A stretch of DNA of 64,000 nt. Origin: an uncultured Trueperaceae bacterium. GTDB lineage: Bacteria > Deinococcota > Deinococci > Deinococcales > Trueperaceae. The stretch spans positions 421,832-485,831 of the forward strand of contig CAWCXJ010000013.1 of assembly GCA_963799485.1 (NCBI GenBank). The letters are read 5' to 3'. The translations under genes and the position numbers were made by a program. The notes under the pieces are model-generated. The model was not told where the DNA came from. It saw only the letters and a program-made list of their open reading frames with translations, and did no database searches. Shown here piece after piece: positions 51,521 to 64,000 of this stretch (position 1 is its first letter; each line of letters starts with the position of its first letter).

Positions 51521-52017
51521 TCAGGCTTGCTCACCGGGAAAGCGCCCGTGTTTTCGGTAGTAGGCCAGAACCGAGCCTTCTCTAAGCGCTTCTTGGAGAA
51601 AGGCGGGAGGGGGCTCGAGCCTAAACACCTCAGCACCTCTTTTTACGGTTCCGGCAGCGAGGTCGAACGAAACTTCGTCGCCATCTTGCAAAGCGTCCGG
51701 CACCGTGTCCGACGTAAACGCCGGAATCCCCAGATTGAGCAGGTTGCGGTAGTGGATACGGGCAAACGACCGGGCAATCACTGCGCCGATACCTAGAGTT
51801 TTCAACGCTTGCGGCGCATATTCACGTGATGAACCGAGGCCCCAGTTGCGCCCGCCGACGAGCAGGTCGCCGGGGCGGACATGTTCAGCAAACTCAGGCC
51901 GTAAATGGGCGAAAGCGTAGTGGTGAAACACGTCCTCACCGACCATAAAGGGCGCGTACTTACCGGGCAAGATGTCGTCGGTGTTGAGGCTGTCGCCGAA
52001 CGTCCACACGCGGGCCA

Positions 52018-52018
<1 letters not shown>
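51521..52018 (-). CDS. lysU: Homoaconitase small subunit
   Basis: NTDDILPGKY, NWGLGSSREYAP, SFARIHYRNLLNLG. Confidence 0.92.
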
Positions 52019-54509
<2,491 letters not shown>

Positions 54510-54511
54510 CT

Positions 54512-54541
54512 ATCGTAGGCCCTGGGGAAACCCTTTGTCAA
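54512..54541 (-). promoter_or_regulatory. Probable lys operon promoter
   Basis: Minus-strand TTGACA-18 nt-TACGAT. Confidence 0.65.
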
Positions 54542-54660
54542 ATCGATTTATGCCGTTCTGGACGTGTTTTTCTTGGTTTTATTAGGCTTTAGTCCCGAGC
54601 TGCAAAGCACTCAAAAGTAGCAAAAACCGTGACGTTGTTTTAGTAGTTACCAAGTGACTT

Positions 54661-54688
54661 TCACCAACGAAACGTAAGTCGTTGGTGA
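54661..54688. other. Perfect 10-bp inverted repeat (terminator or operator)
   Basis: TCACCAACGA-8 nt-TCGTTGGTGA, between the regulator gene and the lys promoter. Confidence 0.5.
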
Positions 54689-54956
54689 GTCGCTGTTTCC
54701 TTGTGAGATTGGGGTCGGTCAACACACTGTCTCAGCAGCAAGCTTGAACGCGTCATCAGCCTAGGGCGTATAAGAGATGTATCTGGGTTCTGCAACCTTC
54801 ATGCGCCGGTCTCGACTACGCCGTTTAGCACACTTAAATCGCTGCGGGGTAACGACCACGAAAACCTCGAGCGTTCAGGAAAGCGACAAAACCCATTCGC
54901 GCCCCGCATCACACGCTCGAAGCCGGAAACTCAGCCAAGCCTTTTGAGCGCCGGAC

Positions 54957-57900
54957 TTAGTAGTCGGAAAACTGGGCGAAGCGGCTCCCAATACCCCAAC
55001 CTAGCTGGGCGGCAAAATCGCTCAGCACTTCCAGCAGATGCGGGCTCGGCTCGAGGCCCAAATCTTTCATCGCCTGCTGATAGTTGCCGTACTGCCGCCG
55101 CGCCTGCTCGGGGTTGCGGTTGTCCAGATGATAGCGAATAAGCTCCAGATACCCCGGTTCGTGGCACGGGTCGAGCTTGAAGGCGAGCTTGGCGTAGGTC
55201 GGCACCAAATGCCGCTGCGTGTCGCGCAAACGGGGCAAAAGGTCAGAAAGAAGCACCAGCGCGTGTTCTTGCAGATGCCGACGGCGCACCTCGACCCAGT
55301 TGGCGTAGTAGCCGGGCAAGTAGTCGCCCTGATAAGTGTCGAGCGCCGCCATCAGCGCCGCTACCGGGTCGCCGGGGCGCAGGCGCTCCAAAGTGCCCGC
55401 GTCTTCGTGAACGAGCAGGTCGGGCGAAAAGGTGTAGAGGTTGCCGTCCCGGACGATAGCTTCACGCCAGCCCAGGGTACGCCGCGCACGTGAAAGGGCG
55501 ACGCTGAACTGCTGTTCGGGGTCACGGCCCCCCTCTTCCCAAAGTGCGTCTAAAAAGTCGTCACGCGACGCGCCGACGCCGGTCGAAGCCAAAAATAGTA
55601 CGATGTCGCGCGGTTTGCGCCCGTTCCAGTCGTTGATGGCCACCGGCGCACCGTTTAAGACGATTTCGACGTGACCACAGGTAAAGAGCTCGAGCACCGC
55701 CTTAGGCGCTTGGGGCAGGGCGACCGGGACGGGCGTCTCGCTAGCTTCTGCCGTGCGGACGACCAGCGGCGGACGGGCGCGGTAGCCGAGCGCTTGTTCA
55801 GCCGCCTGCGCGCGCTTCGCGTAACGAGCCGACTCTTGGACTGACCCCGTGCCGGGGCGTTCGCTGCGGAGCCAAAAGACCTGCGTGAGTTCACGTTTTG
55901 CGCCGATTTCCGTGAATATCTGCTCGGCTGCCGCGAGCGGTTCGTCCGCGCCGGTAAGCTGTGCCGTAAAAAGTTGCGCGAGCCCTTCGCAAAACCGGAA
56001 ACCGTGGGCGAGCGACAGCTCGAGCGCGTGCTGCACGTAACGTTCGGCCTTGGCGCGCTGCGCACCCAAGCTGTAGACCCGCGCCAGCCCAAGCAGCGCG
56101 TAGGGATGACTAAACGCGTCCGACGGGCTCTGGTTCACCGCCAGGCGGTAGTGCTTTTCGGCGTCCTCGTCGTGAGCCAGCCCGAGGTGCAGGTCGCCCA
56201 GGGTGCAGTGCAGCAGTACCGGCGACGCCTCGAGCGACAGCTCGTTCCAGAGCGACAACGCGCGGAGTCCAGCGGCAAGGCCTTCGTGCAGGTCGCCCAG
56301 GTAGTAGTGACAACTCGCTACGTTGTTTAAGGTCGAGGCAATCTGGTACGAGTTGGCGCGCGCTTCCCAATACGAAAGCGTCTTTTGGTTGAGCAGTAGC
56401 GAGCGCTGCACGTCGCCGCTGTAATCCGCGTAGGACGCCAGCCCCCGCGTCGCTAAAGCCTCGAAATAGCCGTCGGACAACTCCTGACCGATTGTGCGAA
56501 CGAACCCGAACGCCGTCTGCGCTGCGCCGTACTCGCCCAGACTCATATGGGCGCGCGCAACCGAGTTGTAGGAAAACGCCAGCTCGCGGAGTTGCCGCGT
56601 CTCGCGGAGCTCTTCTAAGACCTGCGGCGCACGCCCCAGCAGCTCCTTGTAGCGGCGCAAGTTGTGTTCGGCGCGCAGAAGGCCGCTGAGGGCGGTCGCG
56701 TGGAGGCGGCGGTCGCTGACGCCGAGCGTCAAGGCGCGTTCGTAAAGCTCTTTGGCGGCTTCTGCGTCGCGTTGTACGAGCGCTTCGCCCATTAAAATCA
56801 GCAGTTCCGGATGATGCTTGAGGGCCTCTTCGGGCAAACGGCGGAGCCAGAGCGCGAAATGGCTGTAGTCGCCGGACTCGCGCAGGGTACGCTGCAACGT
56901 ACCCAACCGCTCGATGATGGCTGCGACCGCGCCCGCGTTTACGAGGTTCTCGAGCGCGCCGTGCTGCCCTTCGTCAAAACGTCCCACGCCGATGCGGAGG
57001 TTGAGTTCACGCCACAACTCGGGGTGGTTGCGGGCCAGCGATTCTTTTAAGAAATCCTTGACGAGCGGCTGAAGGTCGTATATCGGTTTGCCGCGCTGTT
57101 GTCCCCCGGTGTTACCTGCGTTACTACCTGCGGTATTACCTGTAGTAAACAGCAGCGCGTGGCGTTTGCTGAGGCGTTCCAAAAGTCCAAGTTCGTCCGG
57201 GGTGCAGTAGCTCGTCAGTTCGGTTTCGGCAAACGGGGCCAGGAGCGCCGTCAGGTAAGCGAAACGCTGTTCGCGCTCCGACAGTTCGCCCAAAACTTCC
57301 GAACCCAGATAGGCGTAAACGAGGTCTTCGGCGACCAACTCTTCGGCAGCAAGGGCGTCTGTATTCCCCCCAAGCTGCGCCGCGCCGTGCCCGAGCAAAA
57401 GGGTAAAACCCGCAGGCCACCCGCCTAGCCGTTCATGTCCGGCAAGGGCGGCCTCAGCGTCGGCGCAACCGAGCGCCCGGGCCGCCTCGAGCGCTTCCCC
57501 TTCGGTAAACGCCAACTGGGTCTGCGTCAACAAGTTGACCTCTTGGTTGGCAACGAGGCGCGCCAAGTTGAGCTGCGTCTGGTTGCGCGACAAGATCATC
57601 AGGTGGCACGTCGGCGGCAGGTAGGAGATAAGCGTATCGATAAAGCTCGTGATTTCAGGGGCGTCCGAGACCTTGTGAAAATTATTGAGGATAAGCAGGA
57701 TCGGTTCGTCCAGTTCAAAAAGCGTAACCGTCAAAAGCCCGGCAAGTTCCCAGGGGGTCGCGTCTTTGGGCGCTTCAGGCAGGCGTTCGGAAAAGTCCGG
57801 GACGCGCTGGGAGACGGCTTCGCAGAGGTAGGCGTAAAAGACCTCCAAGTGCGCGTCGTGTTCGTCTAGCTCGTACCAGAGGTCGTGATGTTGGGCAGCG

Positions 57901-58070
57901 CCGGCAAGCTCGAGCGCCAGCACGGTTTTGCCGTAGCCCGCCGGGGCGACCATCAGTGTGAGCTTCCGGTCCAGGTTCGGCAAAATGCGCGACTGTAGCC
58001 GCAGACGTGCGACAACGCTCGTAGGCGCATAGGGACGAATTACCTTTTGCGGCAAAAACCATTTCATCAA
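54957..58070 (-). CDS. Large transcriptional regulator: MalT-like P-loop ATPase, TPR array and C-terminal SARP-type wHTH/BTAD
   Basis: APAGYGKT, WYELD, LILNNFH, GGWPAG; TPR-like LNNVASCHYYLGD; C-terminal FLA..SRDDFLDALW..LSRARRTLG..YQGDYLPG..W..DPCHE. Confidence 0.88.
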   Translation of the reverse strand: MMKWFLPQKVIRPYAPTSVVARLRLQSRILPNLDRKLTLMVAPAGYGKTVLALELAGAAQHHDLWYELDEHDAHLEVFYAYLCEAVSQRVPDFSERLPEAPKDATPWELAGLLTVTLFELDEPILLILNNFHKVSDAPEITSFIDTLISYLPPTCHLMILSRNQTQLNLARLVANQEVNLLTQTQLAFTEGEALEAARALGCADAEAALAGHERLGGWPAGFTLLLGHGAAQLGGNTDALAAEELVAEDLVYAYLGSEVLGELSEREQRFAYLTALLAPFAETELTSYCTPDELGLLERLSKRHALLFTTGNTAGSNAGNTGGQQRGKPIYDLQPLVKDFLKESLARNHPELWRELNLRIGVGRFDEGQHGALENLVNAGAVAAIIERLGTLQRTLRESGDYSHFALWLRRLPEEALKHHPELLILMGEALVQRDAEAAKELYERALTLGVSDRRLHATALSGLLRAEHNLRRYKELLGRAPQVLEELRETRQLRELAFSYNSVARAHMSLGEYGAAQTAFGFVRTIGQELSDGYFEALATRGLASYADYSGDVQRSLLLNQKTLSYWEARANSYQIASTLNNVASCHYYLGDLHEGLAAGLRALSLWNELSLEASPVLLHCTLGDLHLGLAHDEDAEKHYRLAVNQSPSDAFSHPYALLGLARVYSLGAQRAKAERYVQHALELSLAHGFRFCEGLAQLFTAQLTGADEPLAAAEQIFTEIGAKRELTQVFWLRSERPGTGSVQESARYAKRAQAAEQALGYRARPPLVVRTAEASETPVPVALPQAPKAVLELFTCGHVEIVLNGAPVAINDWNGRKPRDIVLFLASTGVGASRDDFLDALWEEGGRDPEQQFSVALSRARRTLGWREAIVRDGNLYTFSPDLLVHEDAGTLERLRPGDPVAALMAALDTYQGDYLPGYYANWVEVRRRHLQEHALVLLSDLLPRLRDTQRHLVPTYAKLAFKLDPCHEPGYLELIRYHLDNRNPEQARRQYGNYQQAMKDLGLEPSPHLLEVLSDFAAQLGWGIGSRFAQFSDY

Positions 58071-58306
58071 AGCGAGCCCACCTAAAACGAAATTTCCCCG
58101 GTCTGCGGCCCAAAGATGAGGCCCTCATGAAGCATACCCCAGTTCAGCGGGGGGGTGTGGCTTTTTATACAAGTTTGGACAGTTAAAAAATTCACATCGG
58201 GGTTGCGCGAGGCTCGCAGATTTTTGTTGCCGGCCTGAAAAAAGGCTTCGCCACCGCCTAAAAGGTAAAAAACAAACTTCCCTCGCCAGCTCCTTGAGAA
58301 CCCCTT

Positions 58307-58373
58307 GCAGGACTTCTGCAAGGTTTGCCCGCAAGCTTCCTGCAAGGGAACCGCAAGGGCTGCAGACCAAACT
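58307..58373 (+). promoter_or_regulatory. Direct-repeat array (GCA(A/G)G) with about 11-bp period plus a weak -10; candidate SARP-type activator site
   Basis: Repeats start at 58307, 58318, 58331, 58342 and 58353; CAAACT at 58368-58373; ATG at 58381. Confidence 0.65.
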
Positions 58374-58380
58374 ACCTCTC

Positions 58381-58566
58381 ATGAAACTACATCCTCATAG
58401 ACCGCCGCCGTACCCCACAGAGACGTCGTTCGATTCTTTTCAGAGTTTGAGGCGTCGTGGCCTGCTGCAAGCGCCCTCGCGTCCGGGGTCGCTGTTGCGG
58501 CAACGCGGCACCCGCCTCGTCCATCCGTGCTACCGCCGGGGCCGCCCCAGTGATACAGGCGGCTGA
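58381..58566 (+). CDS. Possible leaderless 61-aa Pro/Arg-rich ORF (or a long 5' leader)
   Basis: ATG sits 7 nt after the -10-like hexamer; stop is 2 nt before the next GTG. Confidence 0.35.
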   Translation: MKLHPHRPPPYPTETSFDSFQSLRRRGLLQAPSRPGSLLRQRGTRLVHPCYRRGRPSDTGG

Positions 58567-58568
58567 AG

Positions 58569-58775
58569 GTGCGGAGCAAAGCGCTAAACCGTGCGTTTAA
58601 CCGGGCGCTTATCGACCTCGAGTACCGCCAATCCCTGCTTCAAAATGTTCGCAGCGTCCTGGGCCCCGAAGGGGTACCCGAGGGTGAAATCCGCCTGCTC
58701 GAGACGACGGCTCCTCACGACATTCGTGAACTTGCCGAGGCGCTCGAGACCATGCACACCTTGTCGTTTCACTAG
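58569..58775 (+). CDS. Small NHLP-leader-like (Os1348-like) protein
   Basis: ALNRAFNRALIDLEYRQSLLQN..VL..EGV...EIRLL matches the RA..D..(F/Y)R..LL pattern of nitrile-hydratase-like leaders. Confidence 0.6.
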   Translation: MRSKALNRAFNRALIDLEYRQSLLQNVRSVLGPEGVPEGEIRLLETTAPHDIRELAEALETMHTLSFH

Positions 58776-58785
58776 GGAGTCTGAT

Positions 58786-60510
58786 ATGACACACGACCGT
58801 TTACCGCCAACAAGTAAAAAAACCACAAGCACCAAAACTACAGCTACGCTTTGGACGTGGGTAGTGCTTACGCTGCTCACGCTAAGCCTCGCCGCGTGTA
58901 CGCAGGCGGGTGTACAAACCGCCTTCGTTGGTCTCGAGGTCACGGCGGCAGGCCGGCAGGAACTGATTTTCTCGGCCACCACCGGCAGTACCAGCGCAGC
59001 GCAGCCCGTCAGTTTCAAAAATACCGGCGACGCGCCGCTCGTGTTGCGTGCGCTGGCGTTGGGTGGCCCCGATGCGGGCGCGTTCAAGCTCGTTACGCCG
59101 AGTTTGCCGATCACGCTGGAGCCGGGGAGCAGCGCCGAGGCGACCGTCTCGTTTACGCCGTCCGCGTCCGGGACGAAGCGCGCAACCTTGCAGCTCGAGA
59201 GTAACGACAACGCGCGCAGCTTCGTCGAGATTGGTCTTTACGGTCTCGGCAGCCGCCGCGCGGGGGGAAAAGACGAGCCCTCGTTGCAGCAGGTCGTCGA
59301 CACCCTGGGCTACCGCGTCGATGTAGGGGAAGCCCTCTCGGCAGCGGGGGACGGACTTGTCGGCGACGAGGTCGACGCGCCCCTTTTCGAACGCGCAGGC
59401 GACGGGCCTGTGACCCTAAACGTCGTCGCCCGGTACGGCCCCGACGAACCCCTCCCTTACGGATTTTTTACGCTCGGCAGGGGCGCACCCGTAACGCAAG
59501 CAGTAGGGCGCAGCGGGGCGAAAGACGCCCAGAAACTGTTACCGCCGCTCGAGACCGGCAGCGCGTCGTTTAACCCCGGTACGACACCCTTCGGCCTCTA
59601 CGTGCAGGTCGGGAGCGAGACCCGCTACAGCCTGAGCCGTCTTAATCCAGGCAGCGCCCACGTGCTGCGCGTCTATCCGCTGCGCGACCGGGGCGGAAAC
59701 CCGGTTACCGACAGCTACCTGCTCAGCCTCGAGGCGGGCGACGCCGACCGCGACTTTCAAGATGCACTTTTCGTTCTCGGAAACGTCCAGTTGAGCGGCG
59801 CAAACCCCGAAGCCCCCCCGGAAGCCCCGGGGGCCTGGGAACCGCTCTTTAACGGCAACGACCTCAGCGGCTGGTACAGCTACCTGCCCTCGAAAGGCAA
59901 AAACAACGACCCTGAAGGTGTCTTTCACGTTGAAAACGGCGTTATCCATATTCTCGGCGTCGAAAATAACGGCCCCAGAGAGTTCGGTTACCTGGCAACG
60001 GAAAAAAGCTACAGCAACTATCAGCTGCGGCTCGAGTACCGTTGGGGGGAGAAACGCTTCGCCCCCCGCAACCGCAGCAAGCGCGACAGCGGCGTGATCT
60101 ACCACGCTACGGGCCGCGACAAGGTGTGGCCTAGTGGCGTCGAATACCAGATTCAGGAGGGCGATACCGGCGACTTCTGGCTTCTCGGCGGCCCTACCCT
60201 TACGACGACGGTCGCGTCTACTCGCCCGAAAGAGCCGCAATACGCACAAAACGGTACCCCGTATACCAGCCGGAGCGGTCGCTTCGTCCGCATCGTCAAA
60301 GACAACACCAATGAGCGCTCAGGTTGGAACACGGTCGACATCATCGTGCAGGGGAACACGGCGACGCACATGATTAACGGGCAGGTCAACAACCGTGCCT
60401 ACAGCCTCTATACACCCGGCGGCGACGCCCTCGACTCGGGAAAAATCCTGCTTCAGGCCGAAGGTGCCGAGGTCTTCTACCGCAACGTCCGGATTCGGCA
60501 GCTTAAGTAG
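58786..60510 (+). CDS. Lipoprotein: Ig-like (ASH/choice-of-anchor D-like), middle beta domain, DUF1080 (3-keto-glycoside hydrolase-like)
   Basis: AGGGAG SD; lipobox LAAC; NTGDAPL..LEPG..FTP..G; E..D.DFQD; LFNGNDLSGW, DSG, EYQI, WN, G.I.LQAEG..VFYRNVRI. Confidence 0.85.
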   Translation: MTHDRLPPTSKKTTSTKTTATLWTWVVLTLLTLSLAACTQAGVQTAFVGLEVTAAGRQELIFSATTGSTSAAQPVSFKNTGDAPLVLRALALGGPDAGAFKLVTPSLPITLEPGSSAEATVSFTPSASGTKRATLQLESNDNARSFVEIGLYGLGSRRAGGKDEPSLQQVVDTLGYRVDVGEALSAAGDGLVGDEVDAPLFERAGDGPVTLNVVARYGPDEPLPYGFFTLGRGAPVTQAVGRSGAKDAQKLLPPLETGSASFNPGTTPFGLYVQVGSETRYSLSRLNPGSAHVLRVYPLRDRGGNPVTDSYLLSLEAGDADRDFQDALFVLGNVQLSGANPEAPPEAPGAWEPLFNGNDLSGWYSYLPSKGKNNDPEGVFHVENGVIHILGVENNGPREFGYLATEKSYSNYQLRLEYRWGEKRFAPRNRSKRDSGVIYHATGRDKVWPSGVEYQIQEGDTGDFWLLGGPTLTTTVASTRPKEPQYAQNGTPYTSRSGRFVRIVKDNTNERSGWNTVDIIVQGNTATHMINGQVNNRAYSLYTPGGDALDSGKILLQAEGAEVFYRNVRIRQLK

Positions 60511-60527
60511 CAGTGGCGGAGCGGCGC

Positions 60528-60830
60528 ATGACGAAACCCGATCAACCTAAAGCGCAACCTCAGCGTACGCGGCTGCCGCCACCCCGCACGCCGCGCGCCC
60601 AGGGGCGTATCGGTTCCGCGCCGCGCTCCAAGCCCGGGCCGGTTGGCGTATTTGAAACGCAGCTTCAGGGGGAGCAGCGCCGCTGGTTCGACCGCGAAGT
60701 TCGGCTGCTTGCGCGGCTCGCCCACACCGAACGCCTGCTAGGTGACTTTGTGGCGGCGCAACGCCTCGAGCGCGAGTTAGATTCTTTTATCGCGGCAGCT
60801 GCCGCCCTTACGGAACAAGAAAGGGGCTAA
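60528..60830 (+). CDS. Hypothetical protein (Pro/Arg-rich N-terminus, TPR-like helical C-terminus)
   Basis: Fills the gap between the two lipoprotein genes; GGAG before ATG 60528 (alternative GTG 60513); LARLAHTERLLGDFVAAQRL. Confidence 0.65.
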   Translation: MTKPDQPKAQPQRTRLPPPRTPRAQGRIGSAPRSKPGPVGVFETQLQGEQRRWFDREVRLLARLAHTERLLGDFVAAQRLERELDSFIAAAAALTEQERG

Positions 60831-60836
60831 CAGACC

Positions 60837-62060
60837 ATGAACATCTACACGCAAGCTCCCACGAACACCTGTTTGTCTAGACCGACTGCGCGGTTCTCAA
60901 GGTCCCTACCCGGGCTGTTCATAGTGCTGCTTTTGGGGCTTGCAGCGTGTCAGAAGAACGTTTCACCCCCGACTGCCAGCTTCGGCGTAGCCCCCGCTGC
61001 GGTGAGCGTCGGCGACCCGGTAACGTTGTCGTGGCGAGGTATGGGCGCAGCGTCTTGCACCCTGACGACAGGGCAGGAACAGCTGACGCCGGAAAACTGC
61101 GACCGGGGTAGTCTAATCGCACGTTACGACCAGGCGGGAACTTTTTTGGCGGAGCTTGCCTATACTTTCCCAGACGGTTCGACTCTCAGCCGCGCAGCCC
61201 CCGTTACCGTCCGCGCCGATAGCAGCTTTTCCGCTGAGCAAGACGGGCTCAGCGTCACCTTTGAAGTACCGGCGGCTGAACCAAACCGCACAACTTTCGC
61301 CTGGGATTTCGGTGATGGCGAGACCGGCAGCGGGGCGCGCGTTACCCACCGCTACGCCCGCACCGGAGACTACCTTGTGACACTGACGACAACCGGGGCA
61401 GGACAGCCGGTACGGCGTAGCCGAACAATTACGGTCGAAGCAAGCGCCGAGCGGATGACGCTCTTTTCCGGCAACGGCTTGGCAGCCTGGGAACGCGTCC
61501 GGGGCGGCGCGGCGAACTGGCGTTTGGCGGGCGACTATGTTGAGGTCAAACCGGGTAAGCGCGTCGGTGAGAACAGCTTGAGGACGAAAGAAACGTTCGG
61601 CGACTTTCGTCTGCACCTCGAGTTCTGGGTACCGAAAACTTCCCCCGGGACCCCCGAGCAGGCGCGGGGCAATTCCGGCGTCTACTTACAGGGGCGCTAC
61701 GAAGTGCAGATTCTGGACTCTTACGGGCGCACGCTGAGCGGCCAAAACGACGCAGGCGCGATTTACGAAGTCCGGGACGCCACGCAAAATGCGAGCCTGC
61801 CGCCCGAAACGTGGCAAAGCTACGACCTCGAGTTTCGAGCCGCCCGTTTTAGGGGCGAAAAAAAGCTCGCGGACGCGCGCGTCCGCGTTTTCTGGAACGG
61901 TCAGCTCGTTCAGGACGACACCATAATTCCCGGCCCGACGCGGCTCGGAACTCCAGAGGCGGGCGCAGCAAACGCAGCGGGTGTTTTAGAAGGCCCAATC
62001 GTCTTGCAAGACCACGGCGACCGGGTACGTTTTCGTAACCTTTGGCTCGAGCCCCTCTGA
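60837..62060 (+). CDS. Lipoprotein: Ig-like, PKD and DUF1080 domains
   Basis: Lipobox LAAC; WDFGDG..HRY..G.Y.VTLT (PKD); FGDFRLHLEF, GNSGVYLQGRYEVQILDS, LQDHG..VRFRNLW. Confidence 0.9.
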   Translation: MNIYTQAPTNTCLSRPTARFSRSLPGLFIVLLLGLAACQKNVSPPTASFGVAPAAVSVGDPVTLSWRGMGAASCTLTTGQEQLTPENCDRGSLIARYDQAGTFLAELAYTFPDGSTLSRAAPVTVRADSSFSAEQDGLSVTFEVPAAEPNRTTFAWDFGDGETGSGARVTHRYARTGDYLVTLTTTGAGQPVRRSRTITVEASAERMTLFSGNGLAAWERVRGGAANWRLAGDYVEVKPGKRVGENSLRTKETFGDFRLHLEFWVPKTSPGTPEQARGNSGVYLQGRYEVQILDSYGRTLSGQNDAGAIYEVRDATQNASLPPETWQSYDLEFRAARFRGEKKLADARVRVFWNGQLVQDDTIIPGPTRLGTPEAGAANAAGVLEGPIVLQDHGDRVRFRNLWLEPL

Positions 62061-62189
62061 CCGGATTTGACCTGAGGAGGTTGACGAGGCCGAAAAAACT
62101 TCTCAATCGGTGTCGCCGAAACCCTGTACCACGTTCGTGAAGGCGCTCCAGTTATACGGAATCCGGCTAAAAACTGTACAAAGTAGAGC

Positions 62190-62580
62190 TAATACCAAAC
62201 TGGAATAGCAATGTCACAGATGTAGCTGAGAAACGCCGAAGTGCCATCAGGGGAAGTCAGTCAGAAGCTCCAAACGTTCTTTAGCTTGGGTGAACAGCTC
62301 GAGGACTCGGGACAGAGCATCATGCAAAGCAGCGATGGTGTCGAAGCAGCGATTGGCTAACGCGCGGCGGAATTCCTGGAACCAGCGTTCGACCGGGTCA
62401 AGTTCAGGGCTGTAAGGAGGTAAGGCGATGAAGAGGACATTCTCAGGAACATCAAGGTCTTCTTTGCTGAACTTGCTCAGAGCTATCCCGACGATCTGAT
62501 TCTCCTGATCAAGGACAACGCCCCCGCACACCGCAAAGAAGACCTCATACTCAAGTCTTGCACTTATCCATAGAGAAGTT
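62190..62580 (-). mobile_element. IS630-family transposase 3' remnant with an internal micro-inversion
   Basis: VPENVLFIALPPYSPELDPVERWFQEFRR on the minus strand; the preceding ELAQSYPDDLILLIKDNAPAH segment lies on the plus strand. Confidence 0.8.
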
Positions 62581-63386
62581 GGTAATGGCTCAATCATGAA
62601 TGCTAGCCCTACGTTCAAGGTTGTAACGGTGTAAAAAGAGGTGCAGACAAGTGAGATGCATCTCGTCGGACTTAGAGAAAGATAGAGTCTTGCGGACAAA
62701 CCGAGCAAGCCGCTGCCTAACAGTGTTGTTGAACCGCTCGATGTGAGCTGTTAGACCAGAATCTTTGCCAACTGCTTGGTGGTGCGTCTTGAACAAAACG
62801 GCACCTCCCGGGCCTGTTCGCTCATCAGGAATGACGGTTTGATAGGCTTCCCAGAAGTCAGTAAAGCAGATGCCTTGCTTGAAGACAGTAGGAACAGCTT
62901 GCCAAAGATAACGACAGGTGGCAACGCCTCTACCGCCGACCACGCAAGCTACGACTTGTCGCGTACGCTTGCACAGGGCTAGCCAAATCCAACGTTTATT
63001 GGCTTTGCAGCGTACAAACGACCACATTTCGTCTAGTTCCAAGCAGACCGTCTTCGGCTCATTGGGTTCGACCAGCGTATCTTTAAGCGGCGGAAGCGTC
63101 TTGGCTTTTTTTAAGCCATTTGGTCACCGTGTTACGTGACACACCGAAGGTACGCGACAAACCACGCAGACTCGAGCGCTCTTCGTAAGCTCTGAGTATC
63201 TCTTCCTTACGCGCCTCGCTATAGCCGAAGTCTGGGTTCTCTCTACTCGCCTTACCGCACGCTCGGCACTGATACTTCTGCTTGCCATTAGGCGCTTTGC
63301 CATTCTTGACGAGCTGTTCGCTCCCACAGTGATAACATTCGATGCTGACCATCCCTTAACTTATCAGTTTGGTTTGAACCATTACC
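62581..63386 (-). mobile_element. IS1-family element (insA 63083-63352, insB 62590-63042, -1 frameshift)
   Basis: IR GGTAATGG(C/T)TCAA; 8-bp TSD GAGAAGTT (62573-62580, 63387-63394); Zn ribbon CYHC..CRAC; A7G slippery site at 63106-63112; ELDEMWSFV, TDFW, HIERFNNT. Confidence 0.95.
62785..62820 (-). repeat. 36-bp in-frame insertion in insB
   Basis: Adds RTGPGGAVLFKT between VIPDE and HHQAVGK; internal IR GAACA..TGTTC. Confidence 0.7.
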
Positions 63387-63432
63387 GAGAAGTTTAAGGC
63401 GTCGTGGTTGGTTTTGAGAAAGCCTTTCACAC

Positions 63433-63985
63433 TAAACAACACACCGACTAAAGTCGGAGGGTTTGAGACGACGCCTGAAAGTCGGGATACGGGTCGTAGA
63501 CCCGTTAGTCCTCCGTCTTGAAGTTGTCGTCCCGAGTCGGTTCCAAGTGGTGTTCCAAGTAGCTCTTGATCATCTCCTCCGTTACCTGCCCGACGGTCGC
63601 ATAAAAGTATCCCCTCGCCCGGAAGTGTCTGCCCCAATACCGCCCTTTCAGCTTTGGAAACTCCTCGAACAGCTTGCTCGCACTTCGTCCCTCGATTCGC
63701 CGCATGATCTCGCTTGGGGCCAGCGTCGGCGGAGCGCTTACCAAGATGTGTACATGCTCGCTACTGACTACCCCACTCAGTATCCGTATCTCGAACGCCT
63801 CGCAGGTTTGCCGTACCAGTTCTCGCACTCGCTCGGCAGCGTCACCCTTGAGTACCTTGTAGCGGTACTTCGTCACCCAGACAAAATGGTACTCGATGTT
63901 GAAAACCGTGTGACTCCCACAGCGATACTCCACCCCCTAAGGCTGGCAGATGAAATCTGACCGCCTAAAGGCGGTGGCTTGAACC
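63433..63985 (-). mobile_element. tnpA: IS200-type element, stand-alone Y1 transposase (63505-63933)
   Basis: YHFVWVTKYR, HVH, RGYF, IKSYLEH; matching subterminal hairpins CCGACTAAAGTCGG (63444-63457) and CCGCCTAAAGGCGG (63961-63974); outer ends approximate. Confidence 0.93.
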
Positions 63986-64000
63986 TTACGCTTGGAATAG

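Follow-up and report, generated by a model that had tools for sequence, protein, structure and literature searches.

A genus-restricted unit in Truepera that couples a putative reverse-order SARP regulator to a leaderless-looking lipoprotein operon

In a 64,000-nucleotide stretch of DNA from an uncultured Trueperaceae bacterium (GenBank assembly GCA_963799485.1, contig CAWCXJ010000013.1, positions 421,832 to 485,831), hereafter called the window, a gene for a large regulatory protein termed REG stands divergent to an operon of five genes. Three of these encode small proteins (orf61, p68, and p105) and two encode lipoproteins (lipo1 and lipo2). On balance we consider it probable, from comparative sequence evidence, that these genes form a Truepera-specific unit in which REG directly activates a leaderless lipoprotein operon by way of a box of YGCAAG repeats. 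The link among regulator, putative operator, and operon is well supported by sequence comparison, and the module as a whole is, by the same comparison, conserved yet restricted to its genus. The open reading frames (ORFs) of the locus, in window positions, are as follows:

54957 to 58070, minus strand: REG, the regulator, an ORF of 1037 amino acids (aa) read from a TTG codon
58381 to 58566, plus strand: orf61, an ORF of 61 aa
58569 to 58775, plus strand: p68, an ORF of 68 aa with a GTG start
58786 to 60510, plus strand: lipo1, lipoprotein 1, an ORF of 574 aa with the lipobox LSLAAC
60528 (ATG, 100 aa) or 60513 (GTG, 105 aa) to 60830, plus strand: p105, an ORF with two candidate starts
60837 to 62060, plus strand: lipo2, lipoprotein 2, an ORF of 407 aa with the lipobox LGLAAC

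All six ORFs had been named in an earlier note on this DNA, and every one of them is present where that note had placed it. The likelier start of REG is the ATG at 58067, one codon inside the TTG, which gives a protein of 1036 aa. The five plus-strand ORFs are tightly packed, with successive intergenic gaps of 2, 10, 2–17, and 6 nucleotides (nt). Scans with the hidden Markov models (HMMs) of Pfam and NCBIfam reproduced the TPR, DUF1080 (both lipoproteins), and PKD (lipo2) assignments that had been made by eye, and returned no match for orf61 or p105.

Synteny was judged on ten loci, comprising the window, the corresponding regions of five congeneric genomes (genus Truepera, G001 to G005), and four metagenome contigs. 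The genome that holds the window is 3.66 Mb in size and is designated G000. The order of REG followed by the divergent series orf61-p68-lipo1-p105-lipo2 is retained in all five congeners and, as far as the contigs reach, in all four metagenome contigs, which upholds the proposal that regulator and operon belong together as one unit. Among the congeners this divergent adjacency has been held across 64–87% identity in REG itself. Full-length REG orthologs are present in five of five congeners. The other genomes sampled from the family and order, 55 in number, contain none and gave N-terminal matches alone, at 25–35% identity.

The spacer between REG and orf61 contains several elements that are shared among the genomes:

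58125 to 58198, no strand assigned: conserved block CTCATGAAGCATA ... GTGTGG-N30-TCACAT, defined by conserved columns in a six-genome alignment
58317 to 58322, plus strand: upstream fourth repeat copy, TGCAAG, 13 nt before the triple
58330 to 58357, plus strand: putative SARP box of three YGCAAG direct repeats at an 11-nt period, their first bases at 58330, 58341, and 58352
58368 to 58373, plus strand: weak -10-like hexamer CAAACT (consensus cAaRCT), in conserved ungapped columns

Periodic repeats had been remarked upon in this spacer before, and they prove to be real, conserved copies of YGCAAG with an 11-nt period and the geometry of a SARP box. They are the best-conserved element on the operon side of the six-genome spacer alignment, and the triple box occupies the same position in all six genomes and in the four metagenome loci. 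The last repeat lies 29 nt from the ATG of orf61, a distance that is ungapped in six of six genomes, and the combination of a triple box with an ATG at +29 is found again in four of four metagenome loci. Gaps of 9 nt and 7 nt separate the hexamer CAAACT from the last repeat heptamer on its upstream side and from the orf61 ATG on its downstream side. SARP targets are described in the AfsR paper (PMC10936776) as carrying direct repeats spaced by 11 or 22 bp, with 8 bp between the 3' repeat and the -10 element. The sequence geometry of the box agrees with this rule to within one base.

A consensus scan of the spacer found no sigma-70 consensus promoter, which fits a promoter that depends on an activator. 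Because the ATG of orf61 comes only 7 nt after the -10-like element and is not preceded by a Shine-Dalgarno sequence, the mRNA looks leaderless, and orf61 is probably a leaderless first cistron. Such transcripts are frequent in the phylum, as 60% of the mRNAs of Deinococcus deserti are given as leaderless in PMC4007540. Tandem Repeats Finder reported nothing on the spacer, the YGCAAG repeats being too short for this program, and an Rfam search of positions 54000–64000 gave a single chance-level microRNA match (E 0.63) over the repeats. The block at 58125–58198 may be the promoter of REG or a second operator. Its GTGTGG and TCACAT elements form an inverted pair about 30 nt apart with an A/T-rich center, and its CTCATGAA motif is seen again at the start of orf61.

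The triple YGCAAG box, allowing no more than one mismatch, occurs once in the 3.66 Mb of G000, and a reversed-pattern control occurs there zero times. Looser searches of the same genome fell to chance level, both with three repeats at up to three mismatches (30 sites versus 43 in the control) and with two repeats (nine sites versus seven), and none of the extra three-mismatch sites has an ATG at +27 to +29. Since the box is unique in G000, the regulon looks dedicated, as had been suggested, and by this criterion would consist of a single operon. One site each is likewise found in G001, G002, G003, and G005, invariably at the REG locus.

The genome G004 carries three further boxes beyond its REG locus, and these three share one layout: box, 8–9 nt, -10-like hexamer, 6 nt, and ATG. 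The first, on contig C67, lies upstream of an ORF of 26 codons that overlaps, at its stop, the start of a lipobox-bearing lipo1 paralog. This ORF (L119, about 1060–1150) is leaderless-looking, begins MHPHCPLHH, and overlaps the ATG of the paralog in the sequence TGATG; it is, after orf61, the second short cistron to come first behind a YGCAAG-type box and to be coupled to the gene downstream. The second extra box is upstream of a leaderless-looking gene for a DUF1080 lipoprotein of 275 aa. The third lies at the end of a contig, ahead of a sulfotransferase gene (PF13469, E 1.6e-32) that is convergent to another lipo1 paralog:

2491 to 3345 of L118 (G004, contig C335), minus strand: sulfotransferase gene, preceded by a triple YGCAAG-type box and the -10-like hexamer TACGCT, with the ATG 6 nt later

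All of these extra boxes are at or beside loci of the lipo1 family, and the last hints that the regulon in G004 may include sulfation of glycans or small molecules. Five relatives without REG (about 20 Mb, two of them with close homologs of the lipo1 middle domain) together hold one site at no more than one mismatch, with no such gene nearby. The lipo1 paralogs of G000 itself, at C9 and C13:324071, are without a box. At G000:C9:50112-51500 (L115) there is a second tandem pair of lipo1-like and lipo2-like DUF1080 genes, with 55–58% identity in the DUF1080 parts and no box upstream, an arrangement that, judging from sequence, would be a duplication outside REG control.

The protein proposed to act at this box has three parts of particular interest:

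55005 to 55700, minus strand: SARP domain at about aa 791–1022 (an OmpR-type winged helix and a BTAD), assigned by hhalign, an AlphaFold2 model, and Foldseek
57681 to 57686, minus strand: Walker B position, degenerate, with Asn-Asn where MalT has Asp-Asp
57924 to 57944, minus strand: Walker A (PAGYGKT), intact, aligned with the Walker A of MalT in structure 8bob_C and conserved in homologs

Homologs of REG retrieved from a search of 5.8 billion proteins fall into three groups, namely a tight clade at 62–87% identity, a small intermediate clade at 30–41%, and many full-length proteins at 22–27%. Precomputed domains of the most distant group include PF03704 (BTAD) and TPR_MalT, and JGI labels these proteins as MalT/SARP hybrids. 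In four full-length relatives Pfam places BTAD at the extreme C-terminus, in one of them with Trans_reg_C immediately before it. Precomputed Pfam lists of the REG relatives P0001 to P0028 include PF03704 in none, and a single-sequence phmmer search of REG against the PDB found no SARP. An hhalign comparison of two profiles, one from the final 300 residues in 27 sequences of the REG clade and the other from the corresponding part of the BTAD-bearing clade (23 sequences), gave a probability of 100% and an E-value of 8.9e-40 over 226 columns, and the match spans both the winged helix and BTAD.

An AlphaFold2 model of the last 290 residues of REG, built from 40 sequences, has a mean predicted local distance difference test score (pLDDT) of 86.6. 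Foldseek returned just six PDB matches to this model at E <= 0.001, all of them the SARP domain of AfsR (8hvr_I, 8k60) or EmbR (2ff4, 2fez), with target-normalized TM-scores (TMt) of 0.48–0.71. The TMt of 0.71 was reached with AfsR 8hvr_I over 249 alignment columns. By profile comparison and predicted fold, then, the C-terminus of REG is a real but divergent SARP domain composed of a winged helix-turn-helix (HTH) and BTAD. In a 2024 review (PMC10972967), SARPs are called exclusive to actinobacteria and the SARP domain is N-terminal in every class (small, medium, large, and SARP-LAL). Set against these published class criteria, REG has its domain at the C-terminal end (about aa 791–1022 of 1037) and its host is not an actinobacterium. 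The literature searched, exclusive of supplementary files, contained only actinobacterial N-terminal SARPs and no C-terminal SARP domain on a MalT-type protein.

The N-terminal half of REG is of the MalT type. It matches NF003420 over residues 5–428 (E 2e-37), with a score of 128.7 bits that lies below the 537-bit equivalog cut-off, and it aligns to the MalT structure 8bob_C with an E-value of 7.3e-22. A TPR_12 match (E 2.4e-9) and a weak NACHT match (E 9e-4) accompany this assignment, and a Pfam scan gave no match to a LuxR-type HTH (PF00196). As read from the sequence and the C-terminal model, REG is thus a 'reverse-order large SARP' in which a MalT-type STAND NTPase is followed by a TPR sensor and then by a C-terminal SARP domain.

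At the Walker B position, the REG sequence ILLILNNFH aligns with LYLVIDDYH of MalT in 8bob_C. Among 120 homologs, the pair of residues concerned is SN or NN in 23 of 23 members of the Truepera clade, DN in nine proteins, and DD in 81; most REG orthologs have Ser-Asn. Both acidic residues have been lost from REG, and its nucleotide site is probably hydrolysis-impaired. The presence of DN in the intermediate clade and of DD in typical homologs suggests a stepwise loss of ATP hydrolysis in the Truepera lineage. Because Walker B is degenerate, the switching-off of REG is probably independent of ATP hydrolysis.

The two lipoproteins represent the apparent output of the operon. Both have lipoboxes that, as read from the translations, fit the pattern L-[AS]-[GA]-C, and both contain PF06439 (DUF1080, or 3-keto-disaccharide hydrolase), with E-values of 5e-35 in lipo1 and 2.3e-35 in lipo2 and scores of 121.7 and 122.8 bits against a gathering cut-off of 26.8 bits. 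In addition, lipo1 has a choice-of-anchor D or ASH Ig-like domain (E 3e-14) and lipo2 a PKD domain (E 8e-14). Between the known domains of lipo1, about aa 150–350 form a Pfam-blank β-sandwich whose model has a pLDDT of 82.7. This middle domain belongs to a paralogous family with four to six copies per Truepera genome and with matches in three of 55 other genomes sampled. Its model had no Foldseek match at E <= 0.001, and the ESM Atlas offered no usable match. The recurring weak Foldseek matches are calcium lectins of the LecB/PA-IIL type, and an independent aligner ranked PA-IIL first (Z 6.7, root-mean-square deviation 3.5 Å, 110 of 114 residues), followed by thrombocorticin (Z 6.0), middling Z values that may reflect just a common β-sandwich.

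It is plausible, from these domains, that the lipoproteins bind or cleave glycans of the envelope or the environment. Their description as 'glycan-processing' had been proposed before, and what favors it is PF06439 membership and a weak lectin-like fold match. No Gfo/Idh/MocA-type dehydrogenase and no epimerase or isomerase was found in the operon or its immediate flanks, a search that did not extend to the rest of the genome. On the 3' side of lipo2 a third lipoprotein, with PKD and a Kelch propeller, is encoded in G002, G003, and G004, and the window has insertion sequences at this place (62247–63352 and 63505–63933, both on the minus strand, directly 3' of lipo2). These comprise an IS1-family element, in which an InsA-like zinc ribbon/HTH ORF is followed by a DDE_Tnp_IS1 ORF in a different frame and accompanied by a DDE_3 fragment, and an IS200-like Y1 transposase (PF01797, E 4.8e-40). 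On the other side of the locus, genes resembling homocitrate synthase and LeuC/LeuD (homoaconitase-type), named by inspection of their sequences, adjoin REG at window positions 51521–54503 on the minus strand, and the synteny of this block with REG is retained in G005 and G001.

The small proteins are less readily interpreted. The product of orf61 is a basic protein with 51–89% aa identity in the five congeners; its length is 60–62 aa in six genomes, and its frame is open in ten of ten loci. The N-terminal third, about 23 residues, is variable and has in-frame indels, whereas the last 39 codons form a gap-free alignment across six genomes, and the tail RRRGLLQAP.RPG.LLRQRGTRLVHPCYRRGRPSDTGG is almost invariant through the stop codon (the last ~38 residues). 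When the five closer genomes are compared over these 39 codons, 14 first, 7 second, and 32 third codon positions are variable, and in pairwise comparisons synonymous differences far exceed nonsynonymous ones (for example, 20 versus 5 and 21 versus 7). On this comparative evidence orf61 is a real gene under purifying selection in its last ~38 codons. The third positions of its last two Gly codons are nearly fixed as well, so part of the conservation may represent an RNA-level signal for initiation at p68. An index of 5.8 billion proteins held no candidate sharing enough words with orf61, perhaps because a leaderless gene of this kind is missed among predicted proteins. Neither orf61 nor p105 has a paralog in G000.

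The GTG start of p68 lies 2–5 nt past the orf61 stop in six of six genomes (2 nt in the window) and lacks a good Shine-Dalgarno sequence, and its position so soon after the stop suggests that p68 is translationally coupled to orf61. In four of the six genomes the two genes are in the same frame, with one stop and one codon between them (window 58564–58571). In G000 and G005 their frames differ, and a fusion by stop-codon read-through was rejected.

The p68 protein scores 18.0 and 18.3 bits (E 0.002) against the NHLP models TIGR03793 and NF038399, below their cut-offs of 50.9 and 40. A p68 profile run against 1.84 billion representative sequences matched just 21 proteins at E <= 0.001; these are small proteins of 62–73 aa near the Os1348 NHLP-clan model and bona fide multidomain NHLP precursors, and they include proteins that pass TIGR03793 or NF038399. 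Against the PDB, the same profile found nitrile hydratase alpha chains, the best being 1v29_A (E 7.5e-5). NHLP leaders are characterized as structured and protein-like in PMC12537861. The p68 protein ends at residue 68 with HTLSFH, has no Gly-Gly site with a core, and has no tail rich in Cys, Ser, or Thr. By its profile it is a stand-alone protein of the NHLP/nitrile-hydratase-alpha clan, and the earlier designation of it as NHLP-leader-like therefore holds at the level of clan membership and not at the level of model cut-offs or of a core peptide.

In the Deinococcota the p68 family is present in four of four Truepera genomes, with exactly two copies in each positive genome, and in none of 247 others sampled. 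The second copy in G000 is:

153961 to 154161 of G000:C13 (L008, 7947 to 8162), minus strand: p68 paralog of 71 aa with 60% identity and its own Shine-Dalgarno sequence

This paralog stands alone behind a terminator-like hairpin, after a gene resembling a branched-chain aminotransferase, in an otherwise unrelated neighborhood. The remaining small protein, p105, consists of a variable N-terminus rich in Pro and Arg and a conserved helical C-terminus of about 55 aa (RRWF..EV..L.RLAHT.RL.GD.VAAQ..ERE). Its profile found nothing in the PDB (best E 0.85) or Pfam, and its best ESM Atlas score of 0.81 is below the level worth following. Cofolding of p68 with orf61 scored 0.00 (mark 0.32) with an uncertain fold for the partner, a value that speaks neither for nor against contact between them.

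These elements can be assembled into a provisional mechanism. REG protomers would bind side by side on the three 11-bp-spaced YGCAAG repeats, which stand where a -35 element would be, 9 bp upstream of the weak -10 hexamer. Bound REG would then recruit RNA polymerase, as AfsR does at afsS, and transcription would start at or next to the ATG of orf61 to yield a leaderless mRNA carrying orf61, p68, lipo1, p105, and lipo2. Both lipoproteins would be exported and lipid-anchored, and, to judge from DUF1080, the Ig and PKD domains, and the lectin-like β-sandwich, would bind or cleave glycans. The NTPase-TPR part of REG would sense the signal. MalT is acted on by protein inhibitors, and AfsS acts downstream of AfsR. 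That the small proteins modulate the regulator had been proposed in the earlier note, and it is a weak guess from these analogies that the cytoplasmic orf61, p68, and p105 proteins might act back on REG, or on how the operon is translated, in a similar manner.

Several observations weigh against direct activation by REG through the box, or against a broad application of this idea. On the last 280 aa of REG, Pfam at E <= 10 gives no BTAD (PF03704), no PF00486, and nothing else; the BTAD domain claimed in the earlier note is missed by direct search and is recovered by profile-profile comparison and the predicted AfsR/EmbR-like fold. The -10-like hexamer is poor, as its first position is not T, and the main locus of G004 has four repeats spaced 12/12/11 nt instead of 11/11. 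Response regulators of the OmpR/PhoB type also use 11-bp direct repeats around -35, and another winged-helix protein could be the binder of the repeats. We assign the box to REG mainly because box and REG co-occur. The p68 family seems to be independent of the module, because its paralog in G000 is found without REG, orf61, or a lipoprotein. Finally, the enzymology of DUF1080 is known from BT2157, a PF06439 protein that cleaves 3-keto-trehalose beside operon-encoded dehydrogenases, as set out in PMC8121099, and the operon described here has no such genes.

The sharpest limits come from outside the genus. A species-representative scan for REG homologs yielded 79 loci, of which two are from Truepera and 77 from other bacteria, mostly Anaerolineae and other Chloroflexota with some Bacillota; more than 40 full-length homologs are in Anaerolineae. 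HMMs for the five partner genes matched just the two Truepera loci and none of the 77 others. Likewise, a triple 6-mer at 11-nt spacing was found within 450 nt upstream of none of 43 distant homologs, with a gene-body control of zero in 215. These two results preclude generalizing beyond the genus. Linkage of the regulator to its partners, for which a gene-neighborhood analysis had been advised and whose absence elsewhere the earlier note had named as a refutation, is narrow: it is invariable inside Truepera and missing from the distant, mostly Anaerolineae loci.

Other explanations of the locus differ from direct REG control of the operon mainly in what they ask of the small proteins and of the box. 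One unlikely but serious alternative is a sugar-sensing utilization locus, in which an oligosaccharide or metabolite would switch the MalT-like REG and the small proteins would play no part in signaling. In such a locus orf61 would serve leaderless initiation and coupling, and p68 and p105 would have unrelated cytoplasmic roles. The MalT-type N-terminus of REG and the DUF1080, PKD, and lectin-like lipoprotein outputs are compatible with this explanation, as is the PKD-Kelch lipoprotein downstream in three of five congeners. The promoters of paralogs in G004, which are without p68 or p105 and in one case have an unrelated upstream ORF of 26 aa overlapping the lipoprotein start, also point this way, together with the p68 paralog outside the module. 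However, orf61, p68, and p105 are all kept in five of five congeners, the orf61 tail is under clear purifying selection, which a mere coupling device would not need, and the operon includes neither a transporter nor a gene for cytoplasmic sugar catabolism.

The conserved tail of orf61 also raises the prospect, to our minds distinctly unlikely, that this ORF encodes a cis-acting arrest or leader peptide, such that stalling at its stop would gate reinitiation at the p68 GTG and translation farther downstream. A variable N-terminus combined with a conserved tail is the pattern expected of nascent-chain effectors, and orf61 has just such a makeup, with about 38 conserved residues reaching to the stop. 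Its fixed length in six genomes, its stop 2–5 nt before the p68 start, and the p68 GTG without a good Shine-Dalgarno sequence would suit this role as well. The same pattern would also suit a short linear motif for the binding of another protein, and the near-fixed third positions of the Gly codons mean that part of the conservation may be at the RNA level.

A bolder extension of REG-directed activation, speculative enough that we hold it quite improbable, is a self-contained circuit. Here REG would be a hydrolysis-dead, reverse-order SARP-STAND protein whose state is set by the small proteins of its own target operon rather than by nucleotide turnover. [quoted passage not shown] The circuit would thereby tie glycan-binding or glycan-cleaving lipoproteins to a cytoplasmic cue.

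It is more doubtful still that the YGCAAG repeats are the operator of another winged-helix regulator of the OmpR/PhoB type and that the adjacency of REG is historical rather than functional. The spacing of the repeats around -35, typical of OmpR/PhoB sites, is what recommends this idea. Against it, box and REG co-occur in ten of ten loci and are absent together, as the five REG-less relatives have one background site unlinked to lipo1 homologs. The divergent adjacency has been kept across the 64–87% range of REG identity, and the distance to the -10 element matches the SARP rule of PMC10936776. Least credible of all is a RiPP cluster with p68 as an NHLP-type precursor, an option that the relation of p68 to the NHLP/nitrile hydratase alpha clan brings to mind and that we rejected, as p68 stops at the end of its leader-like domain without a core, scores below both family cut-offs, and in six genomes has no cyclodehydratase, lanthionine synthetase, radical SAM enzyme, protease, or exporter in or next to its operon.

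If REG binds the box, activation of the SARP type would be wider and more modular than has been assumed. If the small-protein circuit were true, 'sigma adaptation' of the SARP type would be an old mechanism common to Deinococcota and Chloroflexota and not an actinobacterial specialty. The system is compact and readily tested, with one regulator, one unique putative operator, and one operon. It adds three conserved small proteins, including orf61, which matched nothing in the protein index, and p68, an apparent NHLP fold outside a RiPP setting. It also points to regulated DUF1080 surface lipoproteins in a radiation-resistant lineage.

Comparison with characterized systems places each component near a known counterpart. 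By profile, p68 is related to NHLP leaders and to the Os1348-family NHLP clan (TIGR03793, NF038399), and it differs from them in having neither a core nor modifying enzymes nearby. Both lipoproteins share PF06439 (E ~1e-35) with BT2157 of Bacteroides thetaiotaomicron. That protein acts with MviM-like dehydrogenases and an epimerase of its own operon, BT2156-BT2159, according to PMC8121099, whereas here PF06439 is joined with Ig/PKD and lectin-like modules in lipoproteins whose operon is without a dehydrogenase.

The two halves of REG have separate precedents. MalT of Escherichia coli, a STAND protein of the LAL family, is homologous over its N-terminal ~420 residues, continues with a helical-repeat sensor, and is likewise a single-component activator. 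It differs in having a LuxR-type HTH at its C-terminus where REG has a SARP domain, in retaining the Walker B DD that is S/N-N in the REG clade, and in using MalT boxes rather than a direct-repeat putative operator. The SARP-LAL regulators PimR, FilR, and SanG, as portrayed in PMC5930380, PMC3367932, and PMC10972967, pair a SARP domain with an ATPase/TPR half of the LAL type, and they bind heptameric direct repeats. Unlike REG, they carry their SARP domain N-terminally, come from actinobacteria, and govern antibiotic gene clusters.

The nearest characterized system is AfsR/afsS of Streptomyces coelicolor. Both regulators unite a SARP domain, a STAND NTPase, and TPRs; both systems have 11-bp direct repeats that overlap the -35 region, with a poor -10 element some 8 bp away, a geometry taken for AfsR from PMC10936776; and in both the target adjoins the regulator gene and begins with a protein of about 60 aa. 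The differences are that the SARP domain is N-terminal in AfsR and C-terminal in REG, and that the NTPase is NB-ARC in AfsR and MalT-type with a degenerate Walker B in REG. The host here belongs to the Deinococcota, whereas SARPs are exclusively actinobacterial in the account given in PMC10972967. There are three or four repeats here and two there, and the orf61 protein is without similarity to any known family. The target here is a leaderless-looking polycistronic operon that ends in lipoproteins, where that of AfsR is a regulator of secondary metabolism. The earlier note had found the combination unlike any characterized system, and this judgment holds in part: the reverse architecture does not appear in the literature searched, but AfsR with its adjacent afsS is a close functional analog.

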